Below, one piece after another: positions 42,058-59,357 of a stretch of 64,000 nucleotides of DNA (within the stretch, counting starts at the first letter, position 1; every line of letters starts with the position of its first letter). The stretch comes from Vitiosangium sp. GDMCC 1.1324 (GTDB taxonomy: Bacteria > Myxococcota > Myxococcia > Myxococcales > Myxococcaceae). The stretch spans positions 515,493 to 579,492 of the forward strand of contig NZ_PZOX01000005.1 in NCBI RefSeq assembly GCF_003044305.1, read 5' to 3'. The position numbers were made by a program, and so were the translations under genes. A model generated the notes under the pieces. The model was not told the origin of the DNA, did no database searches, and worked only from the letters and a program-made list of their open reading frames with translations.

Positions 42058-43137
42058 TCACCGCAGGGCGTCGAGCCAGGAGCGCAGCCGCGCGTCAGGC
42101 TGGGCCTCCCCACGCACGCCTGGCTCCACTTCGAGCTCCAGCGTGTGGAAGCCCCGCGCACGGATGCCCTCCAGCAGCGCGGCCCGCTTCTCCGCGTCCG
42201 GGGCGAACAGGATGCACCCGTCTCCGCCTCCGGCGCCGGACTGCTTGCCCACGCACCCGTACGCCGACGCCATGCCGAGCACCCGCCGCATCGGCTCGGT
42301 CTCCAGCGGGCCCAGCTCCTGGAGCAGCGCGTGCTGCTCGCGCACGGCCTCGGAGAAGGCGCGGAAGTCCCCTCCGCCGAGGCCCACTTCGATCTCATGT
42401 CCCAGCGCGTCCGAGCGCTCCACGAAGGCCCGGCGCCCCGCCTCGCCCATCTTCGCCTCCACCTGCGAGATGAGCACCCGCGTCGAGGCGCTCTCCCCGG
42501 TGAAGGCATACCCCAGGGACACCCGGGGCACGGGCAGCCGCCACACGTCCACCGTGGGGGCCACATCCAGCGCCGCGCGGTAGCCGCCAGCGCTCGAGGC
42601 CTCGATGAGCCCCGCCACCTCATAGCGCCGGTAGCGCACCACACCGCCCGCGAAGCTCGCGGCCACGTCGCCGCCACTGCCCTTCCCACCCTGAGCCGCC
42701 GCGTGGGAGACGAGCGCCACCTTCAGCGCGTCGAACTTCTCCTCCAGCACGAAGCGCACCGCGTCCGCCGCGAGCACCGTGGCGCACGCGCTGCCGCCCA
42801 TGCCCAGCTTGCGCCCGTTGGGCCCCACCGCCGACGGAGACACCGCCAGGTCGAAGCCCACGGACTCGCGCCCGTGCAGGCGCAGCGCCTCGTCCAACGT
42901 GCGCGCCACGAAGGAGAAACCCGGAGGCACCTCGCGCTCCCACTTCACGCCCCGAGGCGTCGTGCGCCCCGACAGCGTCCCCTCCTCCACGCACACGTGC
43001 ACCTGGCTGTCCGAGCGCCGCCGCACCAGCGCCGACGTCCGCGGGCCCACCGCCGCCACGCGCGACACGCCGCCCCACAGCACCGCGTACTCGCCTGAGA
43101 CGAACAGCTTCCCCGGGGCCGAGAGCGCGCGTTCCAT
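42058..43137 (-). CDS. Phosphomevalonate kinase (GHMP kinase family)
   Basis: GHMP motif GMGGSACATV, and it is the last gene of the mevalonate operon. Confidence 0.75.
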   Translation of the reverse strand: MERALSAPGKLFVSGEYAVLWGGVSRVAAVGPRTSALVRRRSDSQVHVCVEEGTLSGRTTPRGVKWEREVPPGFSFVARTLDEALRLHGRESVGFDLAVSPSAVGPNGRKLGMGGSACATVLAADAVRFVLEEKFDALKVALVSHAAAQGGKGSGGDVAASFAGGVVRYRRYEVAGLIEASSAGGYRAALDVAPTVDVWRLPVPRVSLGYAFTGESASTRVLISQVEAKMGEAGRRAFVERSDALGHEIEVGLGGGDFRAFSEAVREQHALLQELGPLETEPMRRVLGMASAYGCVGKQSGAGGGDGCILFAPDAEKRAALLEGIRARGFHTLELEVEPGVRGEAQPDARLRSWLDALR

Positions 43138-44129
43138 CAGAAGAGGTGCTCCGCCAGCAGCGCCGCGTCACCGCCCGGCACGCACCGCACCACCTCGGTG
43201 GCCCCGCACGCCCTCGCCACCGCCTCCGCCGCCACCTCGTTCGCCGCGTCCGTCAGGATGCAGGGGTTGGGCCCCGCGTCCAGCGTGAACCACACCGGCA
43301 CGCCCTTCTTCCGCTGCTCGCGCAGCGAGTGGATCAGCTCCAGCGTCTTCGGCATCAGGTAGCAGAGCGGAGGATCCGCCGCGAGCGACGTGGCATGCAT
43401 CCGCCACGCGTTGCGCTCGCACAGGTCCCCGAGCGCCTGCAGGTCCTTCCGGGCGATCAGCTCACGGGCGCGGACGACCTCGGCCTCGGCATCCTTCACC
43501 CACGCCGGGTAGTACGGGCTGGTCTCCACCGCGTTCTTCATGCCGTCGCGCGACTTCACTTCCTTCTCGTCACGGCTGACGATGGCCACCACCATGCGCA
43601 GCTCCGGCCAGTGCTTCTCGTCGAAGCGCTGCACCGCGTAGCTGTCCGTGCCATCCGGGCGCTCGCCCCGCATCCACTCGCAGAAGCCACCCTGGACGCT
43701 GCGGCACGCCGAGCCGCTGCCCAACCGGGACAGGATGCTCGCCGCCTTCGGATCCGCCGGCAGCCCCGCCGCGGCGCGAGCCGCCACCGCCAGGGCCGCG
43801 AAGCCCGCCGCACTGCTCGCCAGGCCCGCGGAGGCTGGGAAGTCCCCGCGCGACACCATCCTCGCCGGGCCGAGCTTCGCGTCCTTCGCCTCGGCGCGCA
43901 CCGCGTCCAGCACGCGCAGCACACGGTCGCGCTCGCTGCCCTTGGCCACGTAGCCGTTGAGCTCCACCTCGTCGGCCGAGCCCACGCCGAAGGCCACCGT
44001 CGTCCGCACCGACAGCGGCGACAGCGTCATCGACAGGCTGGACTGGTGCGGGAGGATGAGCGCGTCGTCGCGCTTGCCCCAGTACTTCACCAGCGCGAGG
44101 TTCGGATGAGCCCGGGCGGTCGCCTTCAT
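43137..44129 (-). CDS. mvaD: Diphosphomevalonate decarboxylase
   Basis: MKATARAHPNLALVKYWGKRD ... SAGLASSAAGFAAL. The true start is internal to the listed 598-aa ORF and overlaps the mvk stop (ATGA). Confidence 0.85.
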   Translation of the reverse strand: MKATARAHPNLALVKYWGKRDDALILPHQSSLSMTLSPLSVRTTVAFGVGSADEVELNGYVAKGSERDRVLRVLDAVRAEAKDAKLGPARMVSRGDFPASAGLASSAAGFAALAVAARAAAGLPADPKAASILSRLGSGSACRSVQGGFCEWMRGERPDGTDSYAVQRFDEKHWPELRMVVAIVSRDEKEVKSRDGMKNAVETSPYYPAWVKDAEAEVVRARELIARKDLQALGDLCERNAWRMHATSLAADPPLCYLMPKTLELIHSLREQRKKGVPVWFTLDAGPNPCILTDAANEVAAEAVARACGATEVVRCVPGGDAALLAEHLF

Positions 44130-45079
44130 GCCGCCCCCCGGGCGCCATCTGTGCGCGGTCCCGCGAGCTGGCTGTCGAAGCACCGGATGCCGAGCCGCGT
44201 GAGCTCGTGCACCACCGGCCCCGTGTCCTGGAAGAGGCCGATGACGGCGCCACCATCCCCTCCGGCCCCGGTCAGCTTGGCGCCCAGCGCGCCCATGTTG
44301 CGCAGCCGGTGCACCATGTCGTCCAGGCCCGGCGAGGACAGGCCCAGCGCCGCGAGCAGGCCGTGGTTGACGTTCATCACGTCCCCGAGCGCCTCCACGT
44401 CCCCCTCCTCCACGGCCTCGGCGCCCTCGGAGGCCAGCAGGCCGATCTCCCGGAAGATGCGCTGGTAGCGCTCCGACCAGCGCTTCTGCCGCTCGCGCAG
44501 CGCACCCACCGTCTGCTTCGTCGGGCTGCGCGCGCCCGCCATCACCACCACCAGCTTCACCGGCTTGGGGCTCTCCACCACCTTCGCCTTCCCCTGATCC
44601 GTGCCCGGCTTGCGGCGGTAGAGGATGAGCTGCTCCATGGCGCTCGTGGTGTGATCCACCCCCGACGGCGTCCCGTGGAACTCCTGCTCCATCTCCCACG
44701 CTACGGCCGCCACCTCGGTGGCCGTCGCCTTGCGTCCCGCCGCCTGCAGCAGCACCCGCGCGCACGCCACCGACAGCGCTCCGGAGCTGCCCAGGCCCAT
44801 GGACAGCGGGAGCTCCGTGTCGAACGACACCTTCACTCCGGGCTCGCCGCACGCCGCCATCGCCCGCCCGAAGGCCGCCTTCAGTACCTTGCGCTGCTCG
44901 CCCGTCAGCGCTTCCGGAATGACGAGCTGGCACCGGGCCGCCGGCTCACCGCGCGCCGTCACTCCGCGCGACAGCGGACCGGCCAGCGCCGGGTAGCCAT
45001 ACACCACGCTGTGCTCGCCCAGCAGGATGACCTTGCCAGCGCCGAAGCCGGTCAGGGGAGCAGTGTTGTTCGTTTCCAT
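44126..45079 (-). CDS. mvk: Mevalonate kinase
   Basis: GKVILLGEHSVVYG ... MGLGSSGALSVA, the GHMP motif. Confidence 0.85.
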   Translation of the reverse strand: METNNTAPLTGFGAGKVILLGEHSVVYGYPALAGPLSRGVTARGEPAARCQLVIPEALTGEQRKVLKAAFGRAMAACGEPGVKVSFDTELPLSMGLGSSGALSVACARVLLQAAGRKATATEVAAVAWEMEQEFHGTPSGVDHTTSAMEQLILYRRKPGTDQGKAKVVESPKPVKLVVVMAGARSPTKQTVGALRERQKRWSERYQRIFREIGLLASEGAEAVEEGDVEALGDVMNVNHGLLAALGLSSPGLDDMVHRLRNMGALGAKLTGAGGDGGAVIGLFQDTGPVVHELTRLGIRCFDSQLAGPRTDGARGAA

Positions 45080-45128
45080 GAATGTCCTTGGCCCTCACCC
45101 TGGCCCTCTCCCGAAGGAGAGGGGGGTT

Positions 45129-46457
45129 TCAGCTCTCGGTGCCGGTGGCCGCGCGGAAGTCCTCGGCCGACAGCGAGGCAATGATTTCCCGCGCCTTCTC
45201 CACCTTCACGTGACCCGCCGTCACCAGCAGCTCGGCGATCTTCTCCACCCAGTCGCCCCGCGCTCCCGCCGTCACCGCCACGCACCGCGCATGCAGCGCC
45301 ATGTGGCCCTTCTGGATGCCGATGGAGCCCAGTGCCCGCACCGCCGCGAAGTTCTGCGCCAGCCCCACCGCGGCGAACACCATCGACAGCTCGCGCGCGG
45401 ACTCCACGCGAAGAATCTTCATGGCCACCTGCACGCCCGGGTGCACCTTGATGGGGCCTCCCACCATGCCCAGCGCCATGGGCAGCTCGATGCGGCCCAC
45501 CAGGTGCCCATCATCCACGTGCCACGTCGACAGCGGCCGGTACTGCCCATCCCGGCAGGCGAAGGCGTGCGCACCCGCCTCGATGGCCCGCCAGTCCTGG
45601 CCCGCGGCGATGGCCGCCGAGTCGATGCCGTTCATGATGCCTTTATTGTGCGTGGCCGCCCGGTATGGATCGGCCAGCGCGAAACGGCTCGCCTGGTAGA
45701 TGCCCTCGGCGATGAGATCGCCCGGCAGGTCGAAGTCCGCCAGCGCCCCCACCGGGATGCGGCACGTGGCGCGCGCCAGCCGCCGATCCGCCAGGTTGGA
45801 GAGAATGCGCAGGAACACCTTGCCGCCGGTGAGCTGCTCCAGCAGCGGGGCCACGCCCTCGGCCATGGTGTTGATGAGGTTGGCCCCCATGGCGTCCTGC
45901 GTGTCGATGATCAAGTGGACGACGAGCAGCGGCTCGCCCCGAGGGCCTTCCGGGGCCGGGAGCACGCGCACCTCGATGTCCCTGCACCCACCGCCGCGCT
46001 TCACCATCGACGGGTGGAAGCTGTTGGCCAGCGCGAGCAGGGCCTCCTTGGCCGCGAGGATCTTCTTCGTCGCCTCGGTGGGATCCCCGTAGCGGGTGAG
46101 CTGCACCTGGCCAATCATGATGGGGCCATCCGCCTCGGCGGTGAAACCACCCGCCTCGCGGACGATCTTCGAGGCGAAGGACACCGCGGCCACCACCGAC
46201 GGCTCCTCCACCGCCATGGGCACCAGGTAGTCCCGCTCGTTGATCCGCAGGTTGAGCCCGAGCCCCAGCGGCAGCGAGAACGTGCCCACGGCGTTCTCGA
46301 TCATCTGGTTCGCCAGGCCCGGCTGGAGCGCACTGATGCCCTGGAGCTGCGCCAGGTCCATCTCATCCAGCCCCAGCATCTGAGCGAGCTTCTCGTGGCG
46401 CTCGACCATCGACAGCTTGTGGAAGCCAGACAACCGGGACGTCAGCGTTTCAGACAT
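45129..46457 (-). CDS. mvaA: Hydroxymethylglutaryl-CoA reductase (class II)
   Basis: Class II HMGR motifs ENAVGTFSLPLG and DAMGANLIN. Confidence 0.9.
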   Translation of the reverse strand: MSETLTSRLSGFHKLSMVERHEKLAQMLGLDEMDLAQLQGISALQPGLANQMIENAVGTFSLPLGLGLNLRINERDYLVPMAVEEPSVVAAVSFASKIVREAGGFTAEADGPIMIGQVQLTRYGDPTEATKKILAAKEALLALANSFHPSMVKRGGGCRDIEVRVLPAPEGPRGEPLLVVHLIIDTQDAMGANLINTMAEGVAPLLEQLTGGKVFLRILSNLADRRLARATCRIPVGALADFDLPGDLIAEGIYQASRFALADPYRAATHNKGIMNGIDSAAIAAGQDWRAIEAGAHAFACRDGQYRPLSTWHVDDGHLVGRIELPMALGMVGGPIKVHPGVQVAMKILRVESARELSMVFAAVGLAQNFAAVRALGSIGIQKGHMALHARCVAVTAGARGDWVEKIAELLVTAGHVKVEKAREIIASLSAEDFRAATGTES

Positions 46458-46505
46458 TCGTATCTCCGCTACGGAAGGGCGAATTCGGGGTCGCGGGAAT
46501 AATCC

Positions 46506-47594
46506 CTACAGCGCCGAGAGCCAGTCCTTCAACTGGCCCATGATGACGCGGGGTTTCTGCCTCAGTTCCCCACAGTTCCGGCTGCCTGTCAGCACGAGAG
46601 CCTGGCGAAGGCCGGAGAGGATGATGGCGAGCGCCTGCTCGGCCCCTTCCAGCCCGCCTGCCTGCTGGGCCCGGAAGAGAGGCAGCGCCATCCCGGCCAG
46701 ATCCGCTCCCAGTGCGAGCACCTTCGCCGCATCCAGTCCAGTGCGCAGCCCACCCGAGGCCACCAGACGCGGCTCCGGACCCACGGCCCTGCGCACGGAG
46801 GCGATGGCCGCCGCGGTGGGGATGCCCCAGCTCGAGAACTCGGCGCCCACCTGGGCCTGCACGCCCGTGGCGCGCAGCTGCTCCACCCGCACCCACGAAG
46901 TGCCGCCCAACCCCGACACGTCCACGTTGCGCACGCCCAGGTCCACCAGCCGGCGCGCCACCTCGGGGCCGATGCCGCACCCCGTCTCCTTCACCAGCAG
47001 GCGCGAGCCGAAGGCGCGCACCAGCCCCTCCACCACGTTGTACCCACCGCGGAAGTCCCGATCGCCCTCGGGCTGGGTCAGCTCCTGGCCCGCGTTGAGG
47101 TGCAGCGCCATGCCGTCCGCGCCAATGGCATCCGCCAGCCGCCGCACCCCGTCCACGCCCAGCTCTATCGCCTGGTACAGGCCGATGTTGCCCAGCAGCG
47201 GCACCGTGGGCGCCACGTGACGCACGGCATAGGACTCCGCTGCCTTCGGGTTCTCCGCCATGGCTCGCTGGCTGCCTACCCCGAAGGCCAGCCCGTGCCG
47301 CTCGGCCAGCAGCGCCAGGTCCCGGTTCACCACCCCGGCCCGCTCCGTGCCGCCCGTCATGCCGGTGATGAGCAGCGGGTAGCGAATCTTCTTGCCTAGG
47401 AACTCCGTGGAGAGGTCCACCTCTTCCACGGCCAGCTCCGGCATCGCGCAGTGCACCAGCCGCACGTACTCCAGCAGCGTGCTGTTCTCCGCCGGCTCGA
47501 CGTCTCCGGTCGCGCACAGGTCGAGGTGGGCGTCCTTGCGCTTCGCGGTCGCCTCCTCACCCGTCACATCCCGCCTGCCCTGTTTAGGAACCAT
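46506..47594 (-). CDS. fni: Type 2 isopentenyl-diphosphate delta-isomerase (FMN-dependent)
   Basis: TIM-barrel IDI-2 pattern, including motifs such as ITGMTGG and SGGLRTG. Confidence 0.9.
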   Translation of the reverse strand: MVPKQGRRDVTGEEATAKRKDAHLDLCATGDVEPAENSTLLEYVRLVHCAMPELAVEEVDLSTEFLGKKIRYPLLITGMTGGTERAGVVNRDLALLAERHGLAFGVGSQRAMAENPKAAESYAVRHVAPTVPLLGNIGLYQAIELGVDGVRRLADAIGADGMALHLNAGQELTQPEGDRDFRGGYNVVEGLVRAFGSRLLVKETGCGIGPEVARRLVDLGVRNVDVSGLGGTSWVRVEQLRATGVQAQVGAEFSSWGIPTAAAIASVRRAVGPEPRLVASGGLRTGLDAAKVLALGADLAGMALPLFRAQQAGGLEGAEQALAIILSGLRQALVLTGSRNCGELRQKPRVIMGQLKDWLSAL

Positions 47595-50417: not shown

Positions 50418-51491
50418 GTGCTGGTAGCACTCCTCATCGTCGTCTCGCTGGGCTTCCTCATCACGCTCAGCATGCTGCTCTTTGGCTCGAAGCAGGCCGC
50501 GGCGCTCCCCTCCTCGACGCACCCCGTCAAGGCCGAGCTGGAGTCCGACACCAAGGCGCGCGCGCGTCTGGAGGCCGACCTGGAGCGCAAGCGCAAGGAG
50601 CTGGATGAACAGCGTACGCAGCTCCAGGATGTGAAGGAGCAGCTCAAGCAGGCCAAGCGGAAGATCTACGAGCAGAAGGAATCGGAGAAGGGCGAGAAGG
50701 ACCTGGTCAAGGCCCGCCTCGAGGTGGAGCGCACCGCCTCCACGCAGCTCGAGGTCGTCCGGGGCGAGTTGGCCCAGGCCGAGGCGGAGATTGCTCGGCT
50801 GAAGGCCGAGACCGAGATGGGCCGGGGTGGCCGCCGGGGTGGCGCTCCCGCCGCCGCACCTGCTCCTGCTCCTGCTCCCGCTCCCGCCGTGGCCGCCACG
50901 CCGGCGCCGCAGCAGCAGCTGTCCGCCCCCGCGCAGCCGGAGGAGCGGGTGGTGACCGCGACCACGACCGTGGTGCCCGCCGCCGCCGAGCCCGCGGCCG
51001 AGAAGGGGCAGCGCCGCTACCGTGATCTGAACGACGCCGACCGCGAGAAGATGGAGCGGCTGGAGGCGACGGCGAACAAGGAGCGCAGCCGGTCCGCCGA
51101 GCTGGAGCGCGAGCTCAAGCGCGTCAAGGGCCGTGCCGACTCGCAGCAGCGCATCTTCACCGCCAGCAAGAACGATCTGGAGCTGGTGAAGGACAAGTAC
51201 AAAGCGCTGGAGAAGCGCCTGAACCGCACGCTGCTGGAGCGTGATCTGCTGCGCCGGGCCATCAAGGACCTGGAGAAGAAGACGGGCATGCTGGCCGAGC
51301 GCACGGAGCTGACGCCGGACGAGATGGCCGCCAGCGATCGGAAGGTGGAGGAGGCCGCACAGGCCCGCACCGCCGCCGAGGCCGCGCAGCAGCAGGCCGT
51401 CGCCGCCGCCGAGCAGTCCAGCACCCCTGCCGAGCAACCCGCGACGGGCGAGTCCCAGCAGGACGAGAAGCCCTCGGCGCCGACCGCGTAG
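50418..51491 (+). CDS. Membrane-anchored coiled-coil protein (hypothetical)
   Basis: An N-terminal TM helix, long coiled coil, and an APAPAPAPA low-complexity linker. Confidence 0.6.
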   Translation: MLVALLIVVSLGFLITLSMLLFGSKQAAALPSSTHPVKAELESDTKARARLEADLERKRKELDEQRTQLQDVKEQLKQAKRKIYEQKESEKGEKDLVKARLEVERTASTQLEVVRGELAQAEAEIARLKAETEMGRGGRRGGAPAAAPAPAPAPAPAVAATPAPQQQLSAPAQPEERVVTATTTVVPAAAEPAAEKGQRRYRDLNDADREKMERLEATANKERSRSAELERELKRVKGRADSQQRIFTASKNDLELVKDKYKALEKRLNRTLLERDLLRRAIKDLEKKTGMLAERTELTPDEMAASDRKVEEAAQARTAAEAAQQQAVAAAEQSSTPAEQPATGESQQDEKPSAPTA

Positions 51492-51559: not shown

Positions 51560-52864
51560 TCAGCTGCCCAACATGCGCAGGAAGGGAGATGCCGACAGAC
51601 GTCCGCGCATCTCCCGGGCCTGCACCAGCCCGGTATGCTGGAGCTGCGTGAAGGCCCGCGTCTGGAGCTGACACGCCCCCTGACTGCGGAGGGAGAGCTC
51701 CAACGCGAGCACGTGCCGTCGCCGCATGGGGCCCTGCTCCAGTTCCTCCAGCAGGCCGTCCAGACTGAACGCGCGCCCGCGCAGGTAGCGGGTGCCACGG
51801 GCGAAGTCCTTCCGAGATTCCGACCACCACGCGGCCACCGCCTCTCTTGCCGGTACCGGTAGCGCATCCTCCGGCCGAGGCTCCAGATCCCGCGAAAGGT
51901 CCTCCACGAGCGGGGGCAACGGCTCTTCTTCTTTCCCCTCCCTCGCGTAGGCGCCTTCCAGCTTCAGCCCGGTGATGGCACTGAAGGCTTCGCCCGCCAG
52001 GGCCGCCACGGGTCCCGGCCCCATGAGCTCCAGGCACGCCTCGGCGGCCTCCACTCGGCCACTGAAACCCAGCGCCCAGAGGGCGTTCTCGCGCATCGCC
52101 TCCGCCCCGGTGCACGCCGACAGCCGCACCAGGTCACGCTCGTCGCCACCGAGCGCCAGCATTACCAGCGACATCCGATCCACCTTCGTGCGCGAATCCA
52201 CCGCCTTGCGGCACGCCTCCCAGGCGGCATGCACTCCAGACATCATCCCCGCCGCGATGGCGGCTTCCCGCACGCCAGGACGCGAGTCCGCCAGCAATCG
52301 GGGCAGCTCGCGCGAGGCCACGTCCCGGGGCAAGGACGGCATACCGCGGAGCACGGCCACCACCACCCGGGCGTCCGGGTGCCCGAGCAACTCCACCTCG
52401 ACACCGCGAGGGAGCTGACCCCTGGAAGCGAGGACCTCGAGGGCCCAGGCCTGGAGCACGGGCTCCGGGGTCTTCAGCAATGACAGCAGGGCCTCGCCCA
52501 CCTCCGGCCGTCCGTTCAGCTCCAGCGCCCGCCCGAGGGGGGCGAGCGGCCCTTCGGGAGCGGCGGCCTGTACCCGCTTCACCAGTTCGGCCAGTTCCAG
52601 GCGTCCGGGCTCGGCCAACAGCGCCCAGAGCGCAGCGGAGATGCGCGGCGGGTCCTCCGAGTCCAACGCGGGCAACAGCAACTCCCTGGCCACGGCCTCG
52701 CCGCCCACCACCAGCCCGTCCAGGTGAGCCAGCAGCCGCTCCTCCAGCGAGGCCACGTCCTCCAGGGAATAGTCTGGCGCCACCAGGGCGCGATTCCACT
52801 GCACCCAGAGGAAGCTCGCCTCGTCCAGGTGCTCCTCGTAGATGTCCATCAGCGGGGATGCCAT
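51560..52864 (-). CDS. Alpha-helical repeat (HEAT-like) protein, TIGR02270-like family
   Basis: Repeated LL..PD.RV..A.L.G units. The family assignment is from memory of myxobacterial paralog families and is tentative. Confidence 0.6.
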   Translation of the reverse strand: MASPLMDIYEEHLDEASFLWVQWNRALVAPDYSLEDVASLEERLLAHLDGLVVGGEAVARELLLPALDSEDPPRISAALWALLAEPGRLELAELVKRVQAAAPEGPLAPLGRALELNGRPEVGEALLSLLKTPEPVLQAWALEVLASRGQLPRGVEVELLGHPDARVVVAVLRGMPSLPRDVASRELPRLLADSRPGVREAAIAAGMMSGVHAAWEACRKAVDSRTKVDRMSLVMLALGGDERDLVRLSACTGAEAMRENALWALGFSGRVEAAEACLELMGPGPVAALAGEAFSAITGLKLEGAYAREGKEEEPLPPLVEDLSRDLEPRPEDALPVPAREAVAAWWSESRKDFARGTRYLRGRAFSLDGLLEELEQGPMRRRHVLALELSLRSQGACQLQTRAFTQLQHTGLVQAREMRGRLSASPFLRMLGS

Positions 52865-52867
52865 GGA

Positions 52868-53391
52868 TCAGTTCACCTGCACCGAGCCACCCTTGATGCG
52901 GTGGGTGCCCGAGGCGTGGCTTTCGATCTGGGTCCCCTTGATGACAACCCGGCCATTGCGCCGCAGGGTGATGCTGGCCTGGCCGCATCGCAAAACAATC
53001 TCATCCTGGCCCTCGATGACGACTCGTTTGCCATCGACATGAGCCTCCACGGGCTGCTCCTCGATGGGCGCGGACTGCGCAAGGACTGCGTCCAGCAACG
53101 GCGTGGAACTGGGTGTCTGCTCCAGCCCCACCACCAATGGCATCAAGGGATCTCCATTTTCGAAGAGCAATACCGCCCGCTGACGGGTAGCAATGGCATC
53201 CCGCAGCGCCTCGGGCTCCAACGGAACCGTGCGCCGGGCAGCCAACGGACGGCCGGTGCGATTTCCCTCGAAGTCCACCAGCAGCATTCCCGCCTCATCC
53301 GTCCCAACGACCCACCCCAACTTGCTTCCCCAGATGGGCTCGCGCGTTTCATCGTCCGACCCTGTTCCCAACGAATGCATGGGTACCTTCA
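52868..53391 (-). CDS. Hypothetical protein with C-terminal beta-strand repeat (DUF6484-like, tentative); co-transcribed with the TIGR02270-like gene
   Basis: A GGAGAC RBS then MKVPMHS. The C-terminus VDGKRVVIEGQDEIVLRCGQASITLRRNGRVVIKGTQIESHASGTHRIKGGSVQVN resembles beta-helix/spike-like repeats. Confidence 0.5.
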
Positions 53392-53536
53392 TCCGGTGTC
53401 TCCTCTGATTGTGCTGGGTCCCAGCCCTGCCCCCCCATGGGTAGGAATAGTCTATCAGGTGGAACACCTTCTCCAGGAGTCCCTACCAGTCGCTATCAGA
53501 GCAACGAGAGTGCTGGATGGCAAACACCTACAACGT

Positions 53537-53565
53537 TTGACATATGCATCTGAATTTATCTAACG
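53537..53565 (+). promoter_or_regulatory. AT-rich promoter candidate (TTGACA -35-like hexamer, TATCTA/TCTAAC -10-like) for the DUF2169 operon
   Basis: The only strongly AT-rich stretch in the 53.4-53.6 kb divergent region. Hexamer spacing is suboptimal. Confidence 0.25.
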
Positions 53566-53595
53566 TCACTCCTCCGAAGTAGGGGGGATTAAACA

Positions 53596-54606
53596 ATGTG
53601 GGGGCTGAAGAATCGCACGGCCTACGCCGCAGAACGGAACTGGACGCGCGACAAGGACGGAGTCCATTGGTGGCTCGTCGCAGTCAAGGCAACGTTCGAC
53701 ATCGCTCCCGGGGGACGGCTCATGCTGGCGGACGAGCAACCGCCCCCGGTGCTGGCACCAGAGTATTTCGGCGAACCAGGCCGGTCGAGCTTGCGCTACG
53801 ACTCCGATCTCCTCGCGGCGAAGCCGGGCACGGACGTGCTGGTCGCCGCGCACGCGCACGCGCCGCATGGAAAACCTGCTCCCACGGTGCCGGTCTCGCT
53901 CCGTATCGAACGGCTCCACAAGGAGATACTCATACACGGGGAACGCCTCTACGACCGGGGGTTGCTCGGCGTGACGGTGACCCGGCCGCAGCCGTTCACC
54001 ACGCGCCCGATTCGATACGAATTCGCATTCGGTGGCAGCGACCTGTCCAACCCCGATCCCCAGAAGCAGCGTATCGATGAGCGGAACCCGATCGGACGCG
54101 GCTTCGCGCGGCGAACAACTGACGTCGTTGGGGAACTGGCCCACGCGATAGAGTATCCACGTGGCGCTCCAGCGGAGATGGGACCGGCGGGGTTCGGCCC
54201 GATCGATTCCTCCTGGATGCCGCGGCGCAAGCTCGCGGGGACATATGACGCACGGTGGGAACAATCGAAGAAGCCGCTGCTGCCTGATGACTTCGATCCC
54301 GCCTTCGCGCTGAGTGCCCCCACGGACCAGCGGACCGAGAAGCCCATCGTCGGCGAAGAGCGTGTCGAGCTCTTGAACATGACCCCCGACGGTGTCCTGC
54401 GCTTCGAGCTCCCGCGCATTTCGCTCGGCTTCACCACGCGCATCGGCACGCGGCGCGAGCAGCACGGCTCGCGACTGGTAACGGTGCTCGTGGAGCCCGA
54501 GGAGAGGCACCTCTCCCTGGTGTGGCAGAGCGTGCTGCGCGTTCCCGTCCCTGACGCGGACTATCTCGACGAAACGGAAATCGTCGAACAAAGGAGTACG
54601 ATGTGA
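53596..54606 (+). CDS. DUF2169-domain protein (T6SS effector adaptor family)
   Basis: MWGLKNRTAYAAE...WLVAVKATFDI is the characteristic DUF2169 N-terminus. A GGGGGG RBS precedes it. Confidence 0.8.
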   Translation: MWGLKNRTAYAAERNWTRDKDGVHWWLVAVKATFDIAPGGRLMLADEQPPPVLAPEYFGEPGRSSLRYDSDLLAAKPGTDVLVAAHAHAPHGKPAPTVPVSLRIERLHKEILIHGERLYDRGLLGVTVTRPQPFTTRPIRYEFAFGGSDLSNPDPQKQRIDERNPIGRGFARRTTDVVGELAHAIEYPRGAPAEMGPAGFGPIDSSWMPRRKLAGTYDARWEQSKKPLLPDDFDPAFALSAPTDQRTEKPIVGEERVELLNMTPDGVLRFELPRISLGFTTRIGTRREQHGSRLVTVLVEPEERHLSLVWQSVLRVPVPDADYLDETEIVEQRSTM

Positions 54607-55652
54607 ACGCCCAGGTCGAGGTGGTGGCCGTCGGCGCGCGAACCCCTGTCGGCCTCACCGCCGAGAGCAGTGCGGCGGCCGTGCGCGCTGGCATCACGCG
54701 GTACGCCGAGTATCCCTTCATCGACCCTCGCGGCGAACCGGTCGTGGTCGCCGCCGACCGGCTGCTCGAACCCAAGTTCGAGGGACGAGACCGTCTGGCG
54801 CCCATGGCCGAGAGTGTTCTCGAGGAGATTGAAGCCAAGATCGATCAGAAGATCCTCTACGGGGGCAGGCTCAGCGTGTTGCTCGCGCTTCCAGAAACCC
54901 GCCCGGGGTTCTCCGAGGACGACGCGGCCTGGGTGGCGAACGCCCTGGCTGCTCGGTTCCGAGCAAAAACGTCCAACGCGCACGTCGAGATCGCCGGGCG
55001 AGGGCACGCCGGAGCGATTCGGGCCGTCGAGCAGGTGGTGAGGGAGTGCTCCGAAAGCAGGGACAATCTGTTCCTGGTCGTTGGAGTCGACAGCTACCAC
55101 CACGCAGATACGTTCGCATGGTTGGAGCGCAGCCGCCGGTTCGCACAACCGGGGATTCGCAACGGGTTCACCCCGGGCGAGGGAGCTGGATGCCTCGCAC
55201 TGATGAGCGCGGGACTGCGCCGTCGCTTGCGCCTCCCCCAACTGGCCATCATGCGAGGGGCGAGCACCGCACAGGAGCGACTGCTGCGCGACAGTGACAC
55301 GGGCTCGTTCGGCGTCGGAATGACCCAGGCGCTCCAAGGCGCCATCGCTGGCCTCGACCGTCCCCGCGAGGGCGTCGACGCCGTGTACACGGATATCAAT
55401 GGTGAACGTTACCGCAGTGAGGAGTGGGGCTTCGTCGCGTTGCGTGCACCGTCGGTCTGGAAGACGCCCGGGTACAAGGCCCCGAGCGACTGCTGGGGTG
55501 ACGTGGGCGCTGCATTTGGGACGCTCGGGAGCATCCTGGCGGTCCAGGCGTTCGCGCGGAGCTACGCGCGAGGCCCGAGGGCTCTGGTGATGGCAGGCTC
55601 AGATGGCGGGCTGAGAGGGGCTATGCTCCTGCAAGCTCCCCAGGTGTCATGA
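54603..55652 (+). CDS. Ketosynthase (thiolase-fold)-like protein lacking the catalytic Cys (putative pseudoenzyme)
   Basis: VEVVAVGARTPVG / NGFTPGEGAGCLAL / GDVGAAFGTLGSILAVQAF parallel KAS I/II conserved blocks. The position equivalent to the active-site Cys reads IAGRGHAG. It overlaps the DUF2169 stop. Confidence 0.55.
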   Translation: MNAQVEVVAVGARTPVGLTAESSAAAVRAGITRYAEYPFIDPRGEPVVVAADRLLEPKFEGRDRLAPMAESVLEEIEAKIDQKILYGGRLSVLLALPETRPGFSEDDAAWVANALAARFRAKTSNAHVEIAGRGHAGAIRAVEQVVRECSESRDNLFLVVGVDSYHHADTFAWLERSRRFAQPGIRNGFTPGEGAGCLALMSAGLRRRLRLPQLAIMRGASTAQERLLRDSDTGSFGVGMTQALQGAIAGLDRPREGVDAVYTDINGERYRSEEWGFVALRAPSVWKTPGYKAPSDCWGDVGAAFGTLGSILAVQAFARSYARGPRALVMAGSDGGLRGAMLLQAPQVS

Positions 55653-55665
55653 GGAGGCAATCCGA

Positions 55666-56802
55666 ATGTCGAAAGTCTCTGTGAATACTCCGAAGACCCC
55701 GGTGACCGAAGGGACCAACGGGGTCGCCGCGGCGACGTTGCCCAACGTGTGCAAGATGCCGGGGCCGCCAGCTCCGTTTGTCCCGACCCCTCTGCCCAAC
55801 ATCGGCAAGAGCGGAACAGACCCGAAGAACTACTCCAAGAGCGTCACAATCGAAGGGAAGAAGGTGGCGATCAGGGGCGCCACCTTCGGTTCCATGGGTG
55901 ACGTGGCCAGCAAGGGGACCGGAGGCGGAATCGTCTCCTCCAACGTGGAAGGACCCACGAGCTTCGTGGGACCCGGGTCCATGGACGTGAAGATCGAGGG
56001 GAAGAACGTCCAACTGCTCGGCGACCCGATGCTCAACAACTGCGGGCCGAGCGGCAGCCCGGCGAACGCGGCGACAATGATGGGCGTGCTCCAAACGACC
56101 GGGTTCGTCACGGTCGTCAATGGGGAGGACAAATGCCCTTTGTGCAGGCAGCGACACGGTGAAGACGCTACTCTGAAAGAGGCTCCGTCGACGAAGGTCA
56201 ATGCCGGGCGACTAGCGCAGAGAGTCGCCAGGAAGGTGCGCTCTGGCGAATCTCCCCCTCTCGCGACAATGCTGGGGGTAGTCCAGTGCAAGTGTGGAAA
56301 AAAGAAAACCTATGCAGACCACTCGGGGGATACACTCCAATGTGTTTGCGACAGTATCGCGGAGCTAAAATGGGTGGGCCCCACGACTGCAACCAGTCCT
56401 GACATCAAAAAGAAAAAGGTCAAGAGTTTCCTTGAAGGTCGTTTCAGCCAACGAGGGGCAGACTTAGACAAGACGTGGCAGAAACTCACTCACCGCGCCC
56501 AAAAGAGCAAGCGCGGTGAGACCTCGTCTGCGGCCTACCCTCCGGGCTCTTGTGCTGGCCCAAGGGCACTCGTGCTCGCTCTAGAAGATAAAGCCTATCC
56601 GGCTGGCCTCACCGAACGATGGTTCCACAGCGGAAAGCAGCCGGTTGAGGCGAAGATCAGGTTCCGCGATGCGGAGAGCGGTGAAGAGGTCGAAGCTTAC
56701 TTCGACCATGGAAAGACCGTCCCGCCGTGTTTGACCTGCAATGTCATCATTCCTTCAATGCTCTGCCCCGAAGACAAGGAAATCGAATGTCAGCACCCTT
56801 AA
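55666..56802 (+). CDS. DUF4150 (PAAR-like) domain polymorphic toxin with Cys-rich C-terminal domain of unknown type
   Basis: N-terminus LPNVCKMPGPPAPFVPTPLPNIG ... IEGKKVAIRG ... IEGKNVQLLGDPMLNNCG is a typical DUF4150. The C-terminal approx. 220 aa carry CPLC, QCKCG, QCVC, SC, PPCLTC and C..C motifs, with GC content visibly lower than the flanks. Confidence 0.8.
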   Translation: MSKVSVNTPKTPVTEGTNGVAAATLPNVCKMPGPPAPFVPTPLPNIGKSGTDPKNYSKSVTIEGKKVAIRGATFGSMGDVASKGTGGGIVSSNVEGPTSFVGPGSMDVKIEGKNVQLLGDPMLNNCGPSGSPANAATMMGVLQTTGFVTVVNGEDKCPLCRQRHGEDATLKEAPSTKVNAGRLAQRVARKVRSGESPPLATMLGVVQCKCGKKKTYADHSGDTLQCVCDSIAELKWVGPTTATSPDIKKKKVKSFLEGRFSQRGADLDKTWQKLTHRAQKSKRGETSSAAYPPGSCAGPRALVLALEDKAYPAGLTERWFHSGKQPVEAKIRFRDAESGEEVEAYFDHGKTVPPCLTCNVIIPSMLCPEDKEIECQHP

Positions 56803-57542
56803 TGGAACTCGAGATGGAAGAACTGCTCCTGAGAATCGAGCCAGAACTCGCGGACCAGTGGCAGGGGGCGACTCCCGACATGATCGAGAAGATCGAGCGG
56901 CTTGCTGGTCACCCTTTGCCTCCATTCTATCGCTGGTTCCTAAGTCGCATGGGTAAGAGCATGGGGGCTCTGGCCTATCCGACTGTAGACTTCTCAGCGC
57001 AACGCGTGCTCGCCTGCTACGCCGAGAAGTTGGTCATGCCCGACCCCCGATTCTTGCTCATCGGATATGAATCCAATGAGATGATGCCTCTGCATGTCTT
57101 TTACGATTTCGATGCGCCGGCTCGAGAGGACGCCCTGGTGACGGAACGTTACGCCAAGGGAGGTGAACTTTACGACAGCTTCGAGACTTTGCGCGAAATG
57201 TTAGCATGGGGTGCGCTCTTGAAGTTCAGGGTCAACAAGATGCCGCAACAGTGTGAGGGCGTTCTCTCCAGCGATGATCCAGATCTCCTCTCACACCTCG
57301 ATCCGCTGATGAGTAGTCTTGGGTTCACCAAGCCGATTCCCACCGGGCCTCGCTGTGGCCTTTACGAGCGGCACGATTCGGTCCTGATATGCTCGCGTAC
57401 GCCGAGGGAAGAACTTATCGGCAATCAGGCCTTCACGCTCGGTGGACGCGACTCGGGAGTTCTCAGAAAGATTCTGGGCAGGATCACAACCGAGTCCTCG
57501 CTAGAGGTCGAAGTCGACGAGTGGACGCCAGCGCTCCGATGA
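56787..57542 (+). CDS. Immunity protein candidate (SUKH / SMI1-KNR4-like)
   Basis: It overlaps the toxin 3' end by 16 bp. DMIEKIERLAGHPLPPFYRWFLSRMG resembles the SMI1/KNR4 N-terminal signature, and GC content is lower. Confidence 0.65.
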   Translation: MSAPLMELEMEELLLRIEPELADQWQGATPDMIEKIERLAGHPLPPFYRWFLSRMGKSMGALAYPTVDFSAQRVLACYAEKLVMPDPRFLLIGYESNEMMPLHVFYDFDAPAREDALVTERYAKGGELYDSFETLREMLAWGALLKFRVNKMPQQCEGVLSSDDPDLLSHLDPLMSSLGFTKPIPTGPRCGLYERHDSVLICSRTPREELIGNQAFTLGGRDSGVLRKILGRITTESSLEVEVDEWTPALR

Positions 57543-57788
57543 AACGTCAGCTGTGCCCATGTTCCAGGGTTTATAAATCACCCGGCAGCAACGCTCGAAA
57601 ATCCACTTGATTTCGGGCATTTGGCCAATGCCAACGGTTGGTGACTTACGTTCTCTGGAACATTGCAAACCGCTGGCGCGGTGGAGAAAACCAGCGGCGG
57701 AAGGAAACGCCCAAGAATTCCAAGCGCTGACTCTGGGACCGAACGCAGCTCCGGGCATCGACCCTCCCCAAGAGGTGAAGAGGACCTG

Positions 57789-59357
57789 TCAGTCCAGCGG
57801 TACTGGCGTGTAGATGAACAGGTCCCCCAGTGTCGTCTGCCGGACCCCGTTGTCGTCCAGGCCGCCCACCACGAGCACCGAGCCGTCCTCCAGCACCGTG
57901 CACGTGTGCTGGTGACGCTCCCGCTCCAGCGGCTTCAACCCGAGCAGCGCCGTCGGGCCACCTTCCTTCCCGGGGACGAGCATCTCCACATGCGGGTCAC
58001 TCACGAGCCCACTCGTGCTGGACCCCAGCCCTCCCAGGGTCATCACCCGCCCATCCGGCAGCGCCACCGCGCACAGGTTGCTCCGGGCGAACACCTGGGG
58101 CCCCGCCGTCACCTGTGAGTCGCTCGCGGAAATGATCTCCGAGGAGGCCAGGAGCCTCACGTCCTCCACGCGGCCGGGCGAGTCGTAGCCCCCCAGGTAC
58201 GCCAGCCGCTCCGGCCCACCGAATGGCACGAGCGCCCCGTCGCGCCGGGGCTCCCGCAGCCGTGCGCCCTCGCCCACCGGAACGAAGCTGCCTCCCTCGT
58301 ACCCGAAGAACAGCACCTCCGGGCGCAACTCCGTCCCATCCCAGCCCCCCACCACGGCGATGCGCCGCCCCTCCTGCACCGCCATCACCCCCATGCCCAC
58401 CCGGGGCACCCGCGTGCTCACGGAGAACCCCTGGCCCGTCGTGCTGTCGTAGCCCTCGGCCTCCGACACCACCGCCCCCCCCTCCCCCACTCCCCCGACG
58501 AGCAGCACCCGCCCGCCCGAGTCCACCGCCGCCGCGTGGTGGCTGCGCGCCACCTTCAACTCCACCGCCGTGGACGTCCCCTGGGCCACGTCCAGCACCC
58601 GGGCATTCCGCATGGGCAACGTCCCCTCCGCCGACACCGCCTCGCCTCCCGCCACCAGCACCTTGCCTCCCGGCAGCCGCGTCGCGGTGTGGAATGCCCT
58701 CGGCGAGCCCAACCCCAGCCCCTGCTCCAGCGCGCCCGTCACCGGATCGAAGAGCTCCGTCGAGGACAGCGTCGTGCTGTCCCCGTTCAGGTCGAGCTGG
58801 ATGCCTCCGGCCAGCAGCACCCGCCCGTCCTCCAGCAGCGTCGCGGTGTGCCCCGCCCGGGGCTCCGCGAGCGTCACGCACGCATCATTCGCCCCGCCCG
58901 GCCTCACATACTCGTCCACACGGCGCACCGCGACGCGCACCGTCGGGCGGCCCTCGTCCGCCGACTCCGGCACGTCGAAGGGATGCGAGCGCCCCACGGA
59001 CACCACGCGGCCTCCCGCTCCAGGCAGGTCCGTGTAGCCGCGCACCTCCAGCACCCGACCCTTCCCCGAGGGGACCTCCGGCGGCTCCACCCGGCCCGGC
59101 TCCACCAGGACGTAGCGCTCCACGGGCTCCATCCCCACGCCGGTGACTCGGAAGCGCAGGTAACGCACCCCCTCCAGGGCCGGCGTCCCCGAGCACGCCT
59201 CCGTGCGGAGTTCCACCCCGTAGAGCCCCTCCCTCGGCCCACAGCCAGCGAGGAGCCCCATCGCCACCACCCAGGCCTTCCAGCCTGGCGACCGGGCCCT
59301 GCCCTGTCCGATGCCCCACCCGGCGGGCAAGGTCCACCCGTTGATACTCCGCCCCAT
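57789..59357 (-). CDS. Kelch-repeat lipoprotein
   Basis: ...AMGLLAGC lipobox, then repeated GRVLLAGG / GKVLVAGG / GRVLLVGG beta-propeller blades. The listed 862-aa ORF upstream extension was rejected. Confidence 0.7.
   Translation of the reverse strand: MGRSINGWTLPAGWGIGQGRARSPGWKAWVVAMGLLAGCGPREGLYGVELRTEACSGTPALEGVRYLRFRVTGVGMEPVERYVLVEPGRVEPPEVPSGKGRVLEVRGYTDLPGAGGRVVSVGRSHPFDVPESADEGRPTVRVAVRRVDEYVRPGGANDACVTLAEPRAGHTATLLEDGRVLLAGGIQLDLNGDSTTLSSTELFDPVTGALEQGLGLGSPRAFHTATRLPGGKVLVAGGEAVSAEGTLPMRNARVLDVAQGTSTAVELKVARSHHAAAVDSGGRVLLVGGVGEGGAVVSEAEGYDSTTGQGFSVSTRVPRVGMGVMAVQEGRRIAVVGGWDGTELRPEVLFFGYEGGSFVPVGEGARLREPRRDGALVPFGGPERLAYLGGYDSPGRVEDVRLLASSEIISASDSQVTAGPQVFARSNLCAVALPDGRVMTLGGLGSSTSGLVSDPHVEMLVPGKEGGPTALLGLKPLERERHQHTCTVLEDGSVLVVGGLDDNGVRQTTLGDLFIYTPVPLD

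Follow-up and report, generated by a model that had tools for sequence, protein, structure and literature searches.

In a stretch of 64,000 nucleotides (nt) from Vitiosangium sp. GDMCC 1.1324 (contig NZ_PZOX01000005.1, positions 515,493 to 579,492 of the forward strand; hereafter the window, with positions counted from its first letter), we analyzed the open reading frame (ORF) at 54603-55652 (+), which lies between the genes for a DUF2169 protein and for a PAAR-like effector of a type VI secretion system (T6SS). An earlier note on this DNA, made from the letters alone, had described the product as a ketosynthase (KS) fold without the catalytic cysteine and had suggested for it a structural or chaperone role in effector loading. 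The ORF exists as that note gave it and encodes 349 amino acids (aa). The KS-like protein is probably a T6SS accessory protein of the TvpD type, that is, a non-catalytic co-chaperone that acts together with the DUF2169 protein on the PIPY effector. The locus consists of the following genes and features, in window coordinates.

51560..52864, minus strand: TIGR02270-family HEAT/armadillo-like repeat protein, 434 aa (HEAT_2, E = 1.4e-7; TIGR02270, 339.8 bits vs. a cutoff of 206.8)
52868..53467, minus strand: DUF6484 protein, TvpC-like, up to 199 aa, as the true start may be internal (Pfam DUF6484)
53468..53595, no strand: divergent intergenic region of 128 bp between the DUF6484-HEAT pair and the four-gene effector operon, containing TTGACA at 53538
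53596..54606, plus strand: DUF2169 protein, 336 aa, TvpA-type chaperone of DUF4150/PIPY PAAR-like domains (Pfam DUF2169, E = 3.6e-86)
54603..55652, plus strand: KS-like protein with a ketosynthase fold, 349 aa, a putative pseudoenzyme very likely of the TvpD family, with the subfamily motif D264-x-N-G-E-R-Y-R-S-E-E-W-G-F
55666..56802, plus strand: effector, 378 aa, with a PAAR-like DUF4150/PIPY domain at residues 23-126 and, at the C-terminus, a Cys-rich toxin domain
56802..57542, plus strand: probable immunity protein, 246 aa, with weak SUKH/SMI1-KNR4 similarity

The KS-like gene starts with a GTG within ATGTGA, in a 4-bp overlap with the TGA stop of the DUF2169 gene (53596-54606), and a Shine-Dalgarno sequence, AAAGGAG, lies 5 nt 5' of this start. 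Between its own TGA stop and the effector ATG at 55666 lie 13 bp that include GAGGAGG. Both flanking genes had been said to overlap the KS-like gene; this is correct upstream (4 bp), whereas downstream there is a 13-bp gap, as the numbers in the earlier note themselves imply, and the tight operon coupling on which that note based co-translation is borne out by these two distances. The assignment of the start is consistent across more than 100 homologues of the same length, which share its position, and the annotation of Vitiosangium sp. GDMCC 1.1324 lists an identical protein of 349 aa as hypothetical. The ORF shows the third-position GC bias typical of a coding frame (the G+C content of the window is 68.6%). 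The two neighbors are those that had been named, namely a DUF2169 adaptor upstream, by its Pfam match, and a PAAR-like toxin downstream, with an N-terminal Tox-PAAR-like/DUF4150 domain (E = 2.4e-17). The fourth gene of the operon, which runs in the order DUF2169, KS-like, PIPY effector, immunity, has its likeliest start at ATG 56802, in a 1-bp overlap with the toxin stop (TAATG), and its longer ORF gives weak matches to Pfam SMI1_KNR4/SUKH_5 (E of about 5e-3).

In a Pfam scan of the KS-like protein, the N-terminal ketoacyl-synt domain scored 19.5 bits, under its gathering score of 20.8, and no match to Ketoacyl-synt_C was found; a single-sequence phmmer search against PDB sequences was marginal (best E about 0.3). 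With a profile of 118 homologues, the best solved relatives were FabF-type enzymes, i.e., β-ketoacyl-acyl carrier protein (ACP) synthases (KAS) of class II (E = 4e-4), and hhalign comparison of a more diverse 121-sequence profile with Escherichia coli FabF (reference sequence identical to PDB 6okg_A) yielded E = 2e-5. The thiolase/ketosynthase fold proposed in the earlier note is supported, FabF being the best solved relative of the family profile. The KAS motif blocks proposed along with it agree in part: the GEGAG-type motif is kept, and the N-terminal motif is kept as VVAVGARTPVG, which is one residue shorter than the claimed VVxxGxGxxxPxG. FabF, with 413 aa, exceeds the 349-aa protein by about 60 residues, and global hhalign places gaps opposite the FabF stretch that precedes the catalytic Cys. 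The predicted model contains a strand at residues 126-133 and then a helix at 137-150, which places the nucleophilic elbow at G134-H135-A136.

At the position of the active-site Cys, EIAGRGHAG had been read, and we found this string at residues 129-137; the sequence of the elbow itself is G132-R-G-H-A-G137. Comparison with FabF shows that Cys163 lies opposite H135 in both local and global hhalign alignments, and opposite G134 in a gapless manual register. The first catalytic histidine, H303, is opposite D264 (hmmsearch) or N266 (hhalign), with no His in either register, the second, H340, is opposite D300, and Lys335 is opposite S295. A MAFFT alignment with E. coli FabF, in which GHA is set against a G-H-A of FabF ten residues past the Cys, was rejected because this register breaks the helix/strand correspondence of the model and conflicts with hhalign. 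The only cysteines of the KS-like protein are at positions 149, 197 and 297, none of them conserved in the wider family, and the only histidines are at 127, 135, 166 and 167. With no His after residue 167, there is no His-His or His-Asn pair available in the C-terminal half. The claimed loss of the Cys-His-His triad is borne out by the absence of an elbow Cys, of any His in the C-terminal half and of a conserved Cys, and the positions of the Cys and His residues exclude, independently of any alignment, the intact triad displaced elsewhere that the earlier note had raised as the alternative.

The differences from the condensing enzymes extend beyond these substitutions. Identity to FabB/FabF and to the KS and chain-length factor proteins of type II polyketide synthases is 13-19%, and the context of FabB/FabF is lipid or polyketide synthesis, whereas that of the window protein is a T6SS. 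In chain-length factors and KSQ-type KS proteins, Gln replaces the Cys and the His residues are kept, whereas the window protein has G or H at this position and lacks those His residues. That the gene encodes a genuine β-ketoacyl-ACP synthase of fatty-acid or polyketide metabolism, located by chance beside T6SS genes, could be argued from the source annotations of homologues ('3-oxoacyl-ACP synthase I'), from the KS-type fold and from the retained GEGAG-type and N-terminal motifs. However, the missing nucleophilic Cys and C-terminal-half His residues, the ketoacyl-synt score under the gathering threshold along with the unmatched Ketoacyl-synt_C, the position of the gene between DUF2169 and DUF4150 genes in loci of several phyla, and the lack of adjacent ACP, acyltransferase or reductase genes all contradict this possibility, which we consider effectively refuted by the sequence and to which we assign next to no probability.

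Family searches point instead to a T6SS-associated lineage. The NCBIfam model NF004798 (PRK06147, '3-oxoacyl-ACP synthase') matched the KS-like protein over its full length (E = 1e-59, 202.5 bits; residues 3-346 vs. positions 4-344 of the 349 in the model). A homologue encoded in the main T6SS cluster on a plasmid of Rhizobium phaseoli scored 428 bits on the same model, over the equivalog cutoff of 342, and is 27.5% identical to the window protein across 100% of its length (E = 1e-13). The family is large, with 3764 cluster representatives (50% identity) at E <= 1e-3 and 2368 at E <= 1e-10. The window protein is very likely a member of this PRK06147/thiolase-like/TvpD family and, judging by its sequence, is a divergent, vgrG-unlinked myxobacterial subfamily member and not a strict NF004798 equivalog. 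The subfamily is marked by D-x-N-G-E-R-Y-R-x-E-E-W-G-F together with G-H-A at the elbow (GHAG in the window protein); the corresponding sequences of the canonical member from Rhizobium are DLIGETYWFKQ and HGRPSG.

The family is not new to the T6SS literature, contrary to the earlier note, which did not recognize it as a described T6SS accessory family: PRK06147 was proposed as an adaptor in 2020, the proteins were described as 'thiolase-like' in 2025, and the name TvpD was given in 2026. Liu et al. (2020) surveyed the surroundings of genes for T6SS spikes and effectors, from which they put forward PRK06147 homologues as a fourth adaptor class (PMC7714669). Of the 407 homologues in that study, 74.4% adjoin DUF2169 homologues, with DUF2169 the first upstream gene in >80% of those, a PAAR-type protein is encoded by the next gene downstream in 52.3%, and 339 VgrG homologues are found near the 407 genes (PMC7714669). 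Sachar et al. (2025) defined a DUF2169 'synteny type A', to which 28% of the DUF2169 genes belong and in which DUF2169 is followed by a thiolase-like gene and accompanied by DUF6484 and armadillo-like repeat genes; DUF2169 is needed for the delivery of PIPY/DUF4150 effectors, including Tse7 (PMC11883445). Monlezun et al. (2026) defined Tvp class II by Pseudomonas aeruginosa PA0096-PA0099, in which the DUF6484 protein TvpC is joined by PA0098/PRK06147, an 'additional predicted PAAR chaperone' that they named TvpD; in their AlphaFold model of PA0096-PA0097-PA0098-Tse7, PA0097 and PA0098 make a groove around the PAAR domain of Tse7 (PMC13373197). TvpC is a short OB-fold/beta-prism mimic of VgrG, and DUF6484 is the hallmark of class II Tvp systems (PMC13373197). 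In Proteus mirabilis, pefDE, the effector-immunity pair, does not suffice by itself, the full pef operon being required (PMC5714391).

The window protein resembles TvpD of P. aeruginosa (PA0098, corresponding to PRK06147 and NF004798, and to VP1399 in Vibrio parahaemolyticus) in its homology to the full-length PRK06147 model, in its place between DUF2169 and DUF4150/PIPY genes, and in its DUF6484 and HEAT/armadillo-like partners. The DUF2169 gene lies directly upstream, the DUF4150/PIPY gene directly downstream, and DUF6484 is present in the cluster. The loci differ in that the 64-kb window contains no linked vgrG and its DUF6484 and HEAT genes are inverted as a divergent pair; the effector of the PA0098 system carries Tox-GHH2, whereas the window effector has a different, family-less toxin domain.

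The DUF6484 and HEAT ORFs of the window were assigned to the module by clustering the neighbors of 80 related loci. The DUF6484 gene product matched Pfam DUF6484 (E = 3.1e-20, 73 bits vs. a gathering score of 27.6) and, weakly, DUF2345, and it is the only window ORF matched by VgrG queries (phmmer E = 2.6e-8). The HEAT gene (51560-52864) begins 3 nt past the DUF6484 stop codon and corresponds to the fifth gene conserved in the synteny type A clusters of DUF2169; here it is divergent from the effector operon. With DUF6484, TIGR02270 HEAT, DUF2169, KS-like, DUF4150 effector and immunity genes, the class II/synteny type A accessory set is complete in the window. The divergent intergenic region (53468..53595) presumably holds the promoters of both units; a sigma-70 consensus scan of this region found no site, and terminator-like sites occurred at chance level only. 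There were no T6SS core genes among the window ORFs scanned, and a search of the window for second copies of the effector module found none. Just beyond the HEAT gene, at 50418-51491 (+), a 357-aa protein is encoded that has matches of the coiled-coil type only (FPP, SMC-like).

For comparative analysis, we used the 80 related loci and the window (81 sources), which come from Myxococcota, Acidobacteriota, Planctomycetota, Beta- and Gammaproteobacteria, Bacteroidales, Rhodothermales and Nitrospirae. Matches to DUF2169 were found in 73 of the sources, to the KS-like protein in 80 and to PIPY in 74, and strict adjacency of DUF2169, KS-like and PIPY genes was observed in 58 modules. Outside myxobacteria, modules usually run vgrG-DUF6484-DUF2169-KS-like-PIPY effector-immunity and have the HEAT gene farther downstream; Rhizobium has a similar arrangement in which vgrG-DUF6484 is divergent. 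HEAT homologues adjoin the module in 39 of the 81 loci, on either strand. The spacing at the DUF2169/KS-like junction is the same as in the window in 31 of the 67 scored cases and is within about 25 nt in most of the others. Paralogous DUF2169-KS-like-PIPY modules occur in multiple copies per genome in myxobacteria (for instance, two each in Cystobacter fuscus, Archangium minus and Nannocystis punicea, three in N. pusilla, and four loci over two Enhygromyxa salina strains), some in tandem within 10 kb and some with truncated KS-like genes (for example, L010, L020, L040 and L052), which matches the report that adaptor copy numbers are highest in myxobacteria (PMC7714669).

Clustering of the effector C-terminal domains from the 58 modules gave at least 18 groups unrelated to one another. 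Given that the KS-like gene is kept alongside all these toxin domains, it serves the PIPY/DUF2169 part, which stays constant between modules, and no particular toxin, and this independence from toxin type favors an adaptor role over an immunity role. The KS-like protein as a second immunity protein or antitoxin that neutralizes the downstream toxin in the producer is suggested by the location of its gene directly upstream of the toxin gene, to which it is translationally linked. However, a separate downstream gene co-varies with the toxin C-terminal domain (the two are found together in about 47 loci), and conservation beside at least 18 unrelated toxin domains is the behavior of an adaptor; on these grounds we rejected the immunity reading and regard it as highly improbable. 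In modules with other toxins, the gene that follows the effector belongs to one family, whose products are about 330 aa long (L051:12611-13585 plus 13 more ORFs, in 13 loci). One member, L051:12611-13585, was scanned and is an immunity protein of the TsiV type by its match to Pfam PF11876 ('Type VI immunity for VRR-NUC'). This TsiV-type gene shows that one accessory set serves different toxins, among them one of the nuclease type. A gene for an S-adenosylmethionine-dependent methyltransferase (about 430-470 aa; L051:7699-8997 and seven other non-myxobacterial loci) is conserved in or beside modules of the vgrG-DUF6484-DUF2169-KS-like-PIPY arrangement in Gammaproteobacteria, Acidobacteriota and Planctomycetota, and is absent from the window.

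The toxin domain of the window effector comprises its C-terminal 238 aa (window 56086-56799, +) and is common to 34 of the 58 clean modules. Searches of this domain against Pfam and NCBIfam and a profile search of the PDB found nothing significant, the similarity to the zinc site of cytidine deaminase (2d30) being faint and insignificant (E = 1.4). The invariant residues, in the numbering of the C-terminal domain alignment, are C7-x-x-C10, H14, C58, C146-A147, E167, P203-x-C205-x-x-C208 and C217. The effector module is located in a stretch of lower G+C content (window 53000-58000, 0.56-0.67 vs. 0.69-0.75 in the flanks), with the lowest values (0.56-0.58) over the toxin C-terminus and the immunity gene and a third-position GC of 0.79 over the module vs. 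about 0.9 elsewhere, which is consistent with horizontal acquisition or with fast turnover of the toxin-immunity end.

To assess what occupies the former active site, conservation was measured in 121 representatives that are 33-55% identical to the window protein. The elbow column contains His in 112 of the 121 and Cys in only 1, and no conserved Cys or Ser nucleophile was found at the elbow in this set. G134 is conserved in 121/121 representatives, H135 in 112/121, D264 in 120/121, N266 in 120/121, E268 in 112/121, R271 in 119/121 and D300 in 116/121. Some of the other invariant residues, namely E193 (GEG/AA), G299 and G302, are a structural legacy shared with KS enzymes. The canonical Rhizobium member lacks the cluster, with R at 135, I at 266 and N at 300, and retains D264, G267, E268, Y270 and G299, and a Burkholderia member keeps H135, N266 and D300, with the rest of the motif different. 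The most economical reading of these alignments is that the polar cluster would form a subfamily-specific hydrogen-bond or salt-bridge network or a binding surface.

Alternatively, the old active site of the DxNGERYR subfamily may have been rebuilt as a His135/Asp264/Asn266/Arg271/Asp300 site that performs chemistry or binds a metal, small molecule or other ligand in the maturation or loading of the PIPY effector, and the same site or a neighboring surface may dock the TIGR02270 HEAT protein. The conservation of the cluster within the subfamily would fit such a repurposed enzyme or ligand binder, whereas the cluster is not universal in the wider family, as the Rhizobium (R135, I266, N300) and Burkholderia sequences show, the elbow offers no conserved Cys or Ser as a nucleophile, and the protein is some 60 residues shorter than FabF, with gaps before the catalytic Cys in the global alignment. 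We consider this possibility unlikely; if it were true, the HEAT protein would be a fifth component of class II Tvp complexes, one so far unmodelled.

A link between the KS-like and HEAT proteins is suggested by a natural fusion. Protein P0168 (739 aa) combines a KS-like/TvpD domain (residues 6-344) with a TIGR02270 HEAT-repeat domain that is 33% identical to the window HEAT protein (E = 8e-40); the fusion, 1 representative among 150, is a single metagenome gene call known at the protein level only. Under the Rosetta-stone logic, this fusion suggests that TvpD and the TIGR02270 HEAT protein may interact, and the published class II Tvp model does not include the HEAT component (PMC13373197). 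The fusion and the conservation of the HEAT gene in 39 of the 81 loci also bear on a second possibility, that the KS-like protein is a structural passenger that stays on the loaded spike, where it would fill the baseplate cavity or stabilize the VgrG-PAAR tip, might be co-secreted and might act via contact with the HEAT protein. Tvp proteins have been discussed as filling the baseplate cavity and staying in the final VgrG accessory complex (PMC13373197). However, in the published P. aeruginosa model neither PA0097 nor PA0098 touches VgrG1b (PMC13373197), and the fusion was found in only that one metagenomic representative, so that a passenger role seems to us improbable, if slightly less so than a rebuilt active site.

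Within the module, the pairwise distances of the KS-like proteins correlate with those of DUF2169 (r = 0.93, and a partial r of 0.84 with PIPY held constant), whereas the correlation with PIPY vanishes once DUF2169 is controlled for (partial r = -0.06). This pattern weakly fits a pairing of TvpA with TvpD in which it is mainly TvpA that touches PIPY. Given the loss of the triad and the conserved DUF2169/KS-like/PIPY order, the non-enzymatic accessory role in effector loading that the earlier note suggested is the best reading, as a prediction; its non-enzymatic nature, the physical contacts and the pre-complex step are inferred from the literature and from synteny. By this reading, the KS-fold protein would no longer condense acyl groups; jointly with the DUF2169 protein (TvpA), it would bind the downstream-encoded effector at its PAAR-like DUF4150/PIPY domain and keep this domain shielded. 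If the locus works like class II Tvp systems, a complex of TvpA, TvpD and effector would form first on a trimer of the DUF6484 (TvpC-like) protein and pass from there to a VgrG spike whose gene would lie elsewhere in the genome, with the downstream immunity protein protecting the producer.

Several observations weigh against this co-chaperone role. The score of the window protein on NF004798 lies under the equivalog cutoff, as do those of ten KS-like proteins from other loci and phyla (143-232 bits), which indicates a divergent subfamily whose behavior could differ. The search for vgrG across the 64-kb window found none besides the DUF6484 look-alike, leaving the cognate spike unlinked; such linkage is usual in the TvpD family and not obligatory. 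As far as the alignments indicate, the near-invariance at the old active-site positions is greater than a passive scaffold would strictly need. The mirror-tree correlations are weak because the genes are inherited as one linked module and share its history. Finally, the co-chaperone role of the TvpD family is itself predicted from synteny and AlphaFold complex models: no direct experiment on TvpD/PRK06147, no lone deletion of PA0098, VP1399 or pefC and no pull-down is reported in PMC7714669, PMC11883445, PMC13373197, PMC5714391 or PMC10564176.

Other T6SS proteins invite comparison with the putative co-chaperone. TsmK (AsaB, A1S_1301) of Acinetobacter baumannii is likewise a KS-fold protein that has lost its catalytic residues and was co-opted by a T6SS; this 'pseudo-ketoacyl synthase' is needed for the assembly or stability of the membrane complex (TssM/TssL), has its gene in the core T6SS cluster and is largely restricted to Acinetobacter (PMC10564176). 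The window protein is set apart from TsmK by description and context, being encoded in a DUF2169/PIPY effector module, whereas TsmK belongs to the core cluster and the membrane complex. Tla3 (DUF2875), the Tle3 adaptor of P. aeruginosa (PDB 8yz3; Berni et al., 2019, PMC6560169), is a different kind of adaptor, the window protein not being a member of DUF2875. Elsewhere in the window, at 42058-47594 (-), there is a mevalonate-pathway operon, unrelated to the KS-like gene, that contains two GHMP-kinase-type genes, a diphosphomevalonate decarboxylase gene, an HMG-CoA reductase gene and a flavin mononucleotide-dependent dehydrogenase-like gene, possibly a type 2 isopentenyl diphosphate isomerase.

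For the field, the locus adds little that is new, given that the family has been recognized since 2020 and was named in 2026, beyond a myxobacterial, vgrG-unlinked example. Its value is in annotation: such proteins are still labeled 'hypothetical' or '3-oxoacyl-ACP synthase' even though they are unable to be condensing enzymes, and KS-like proteins of this type are a reliable sign of a DUF4150/PIPY effector module with its immunity gene. The polar cluster, near-invariant in this subfamily where the active site used to be, could guide experiments on the TvpD family, and the TvpD-HEAT (TIGR02270) fusion points to a partner that is absent from current Tvp models.

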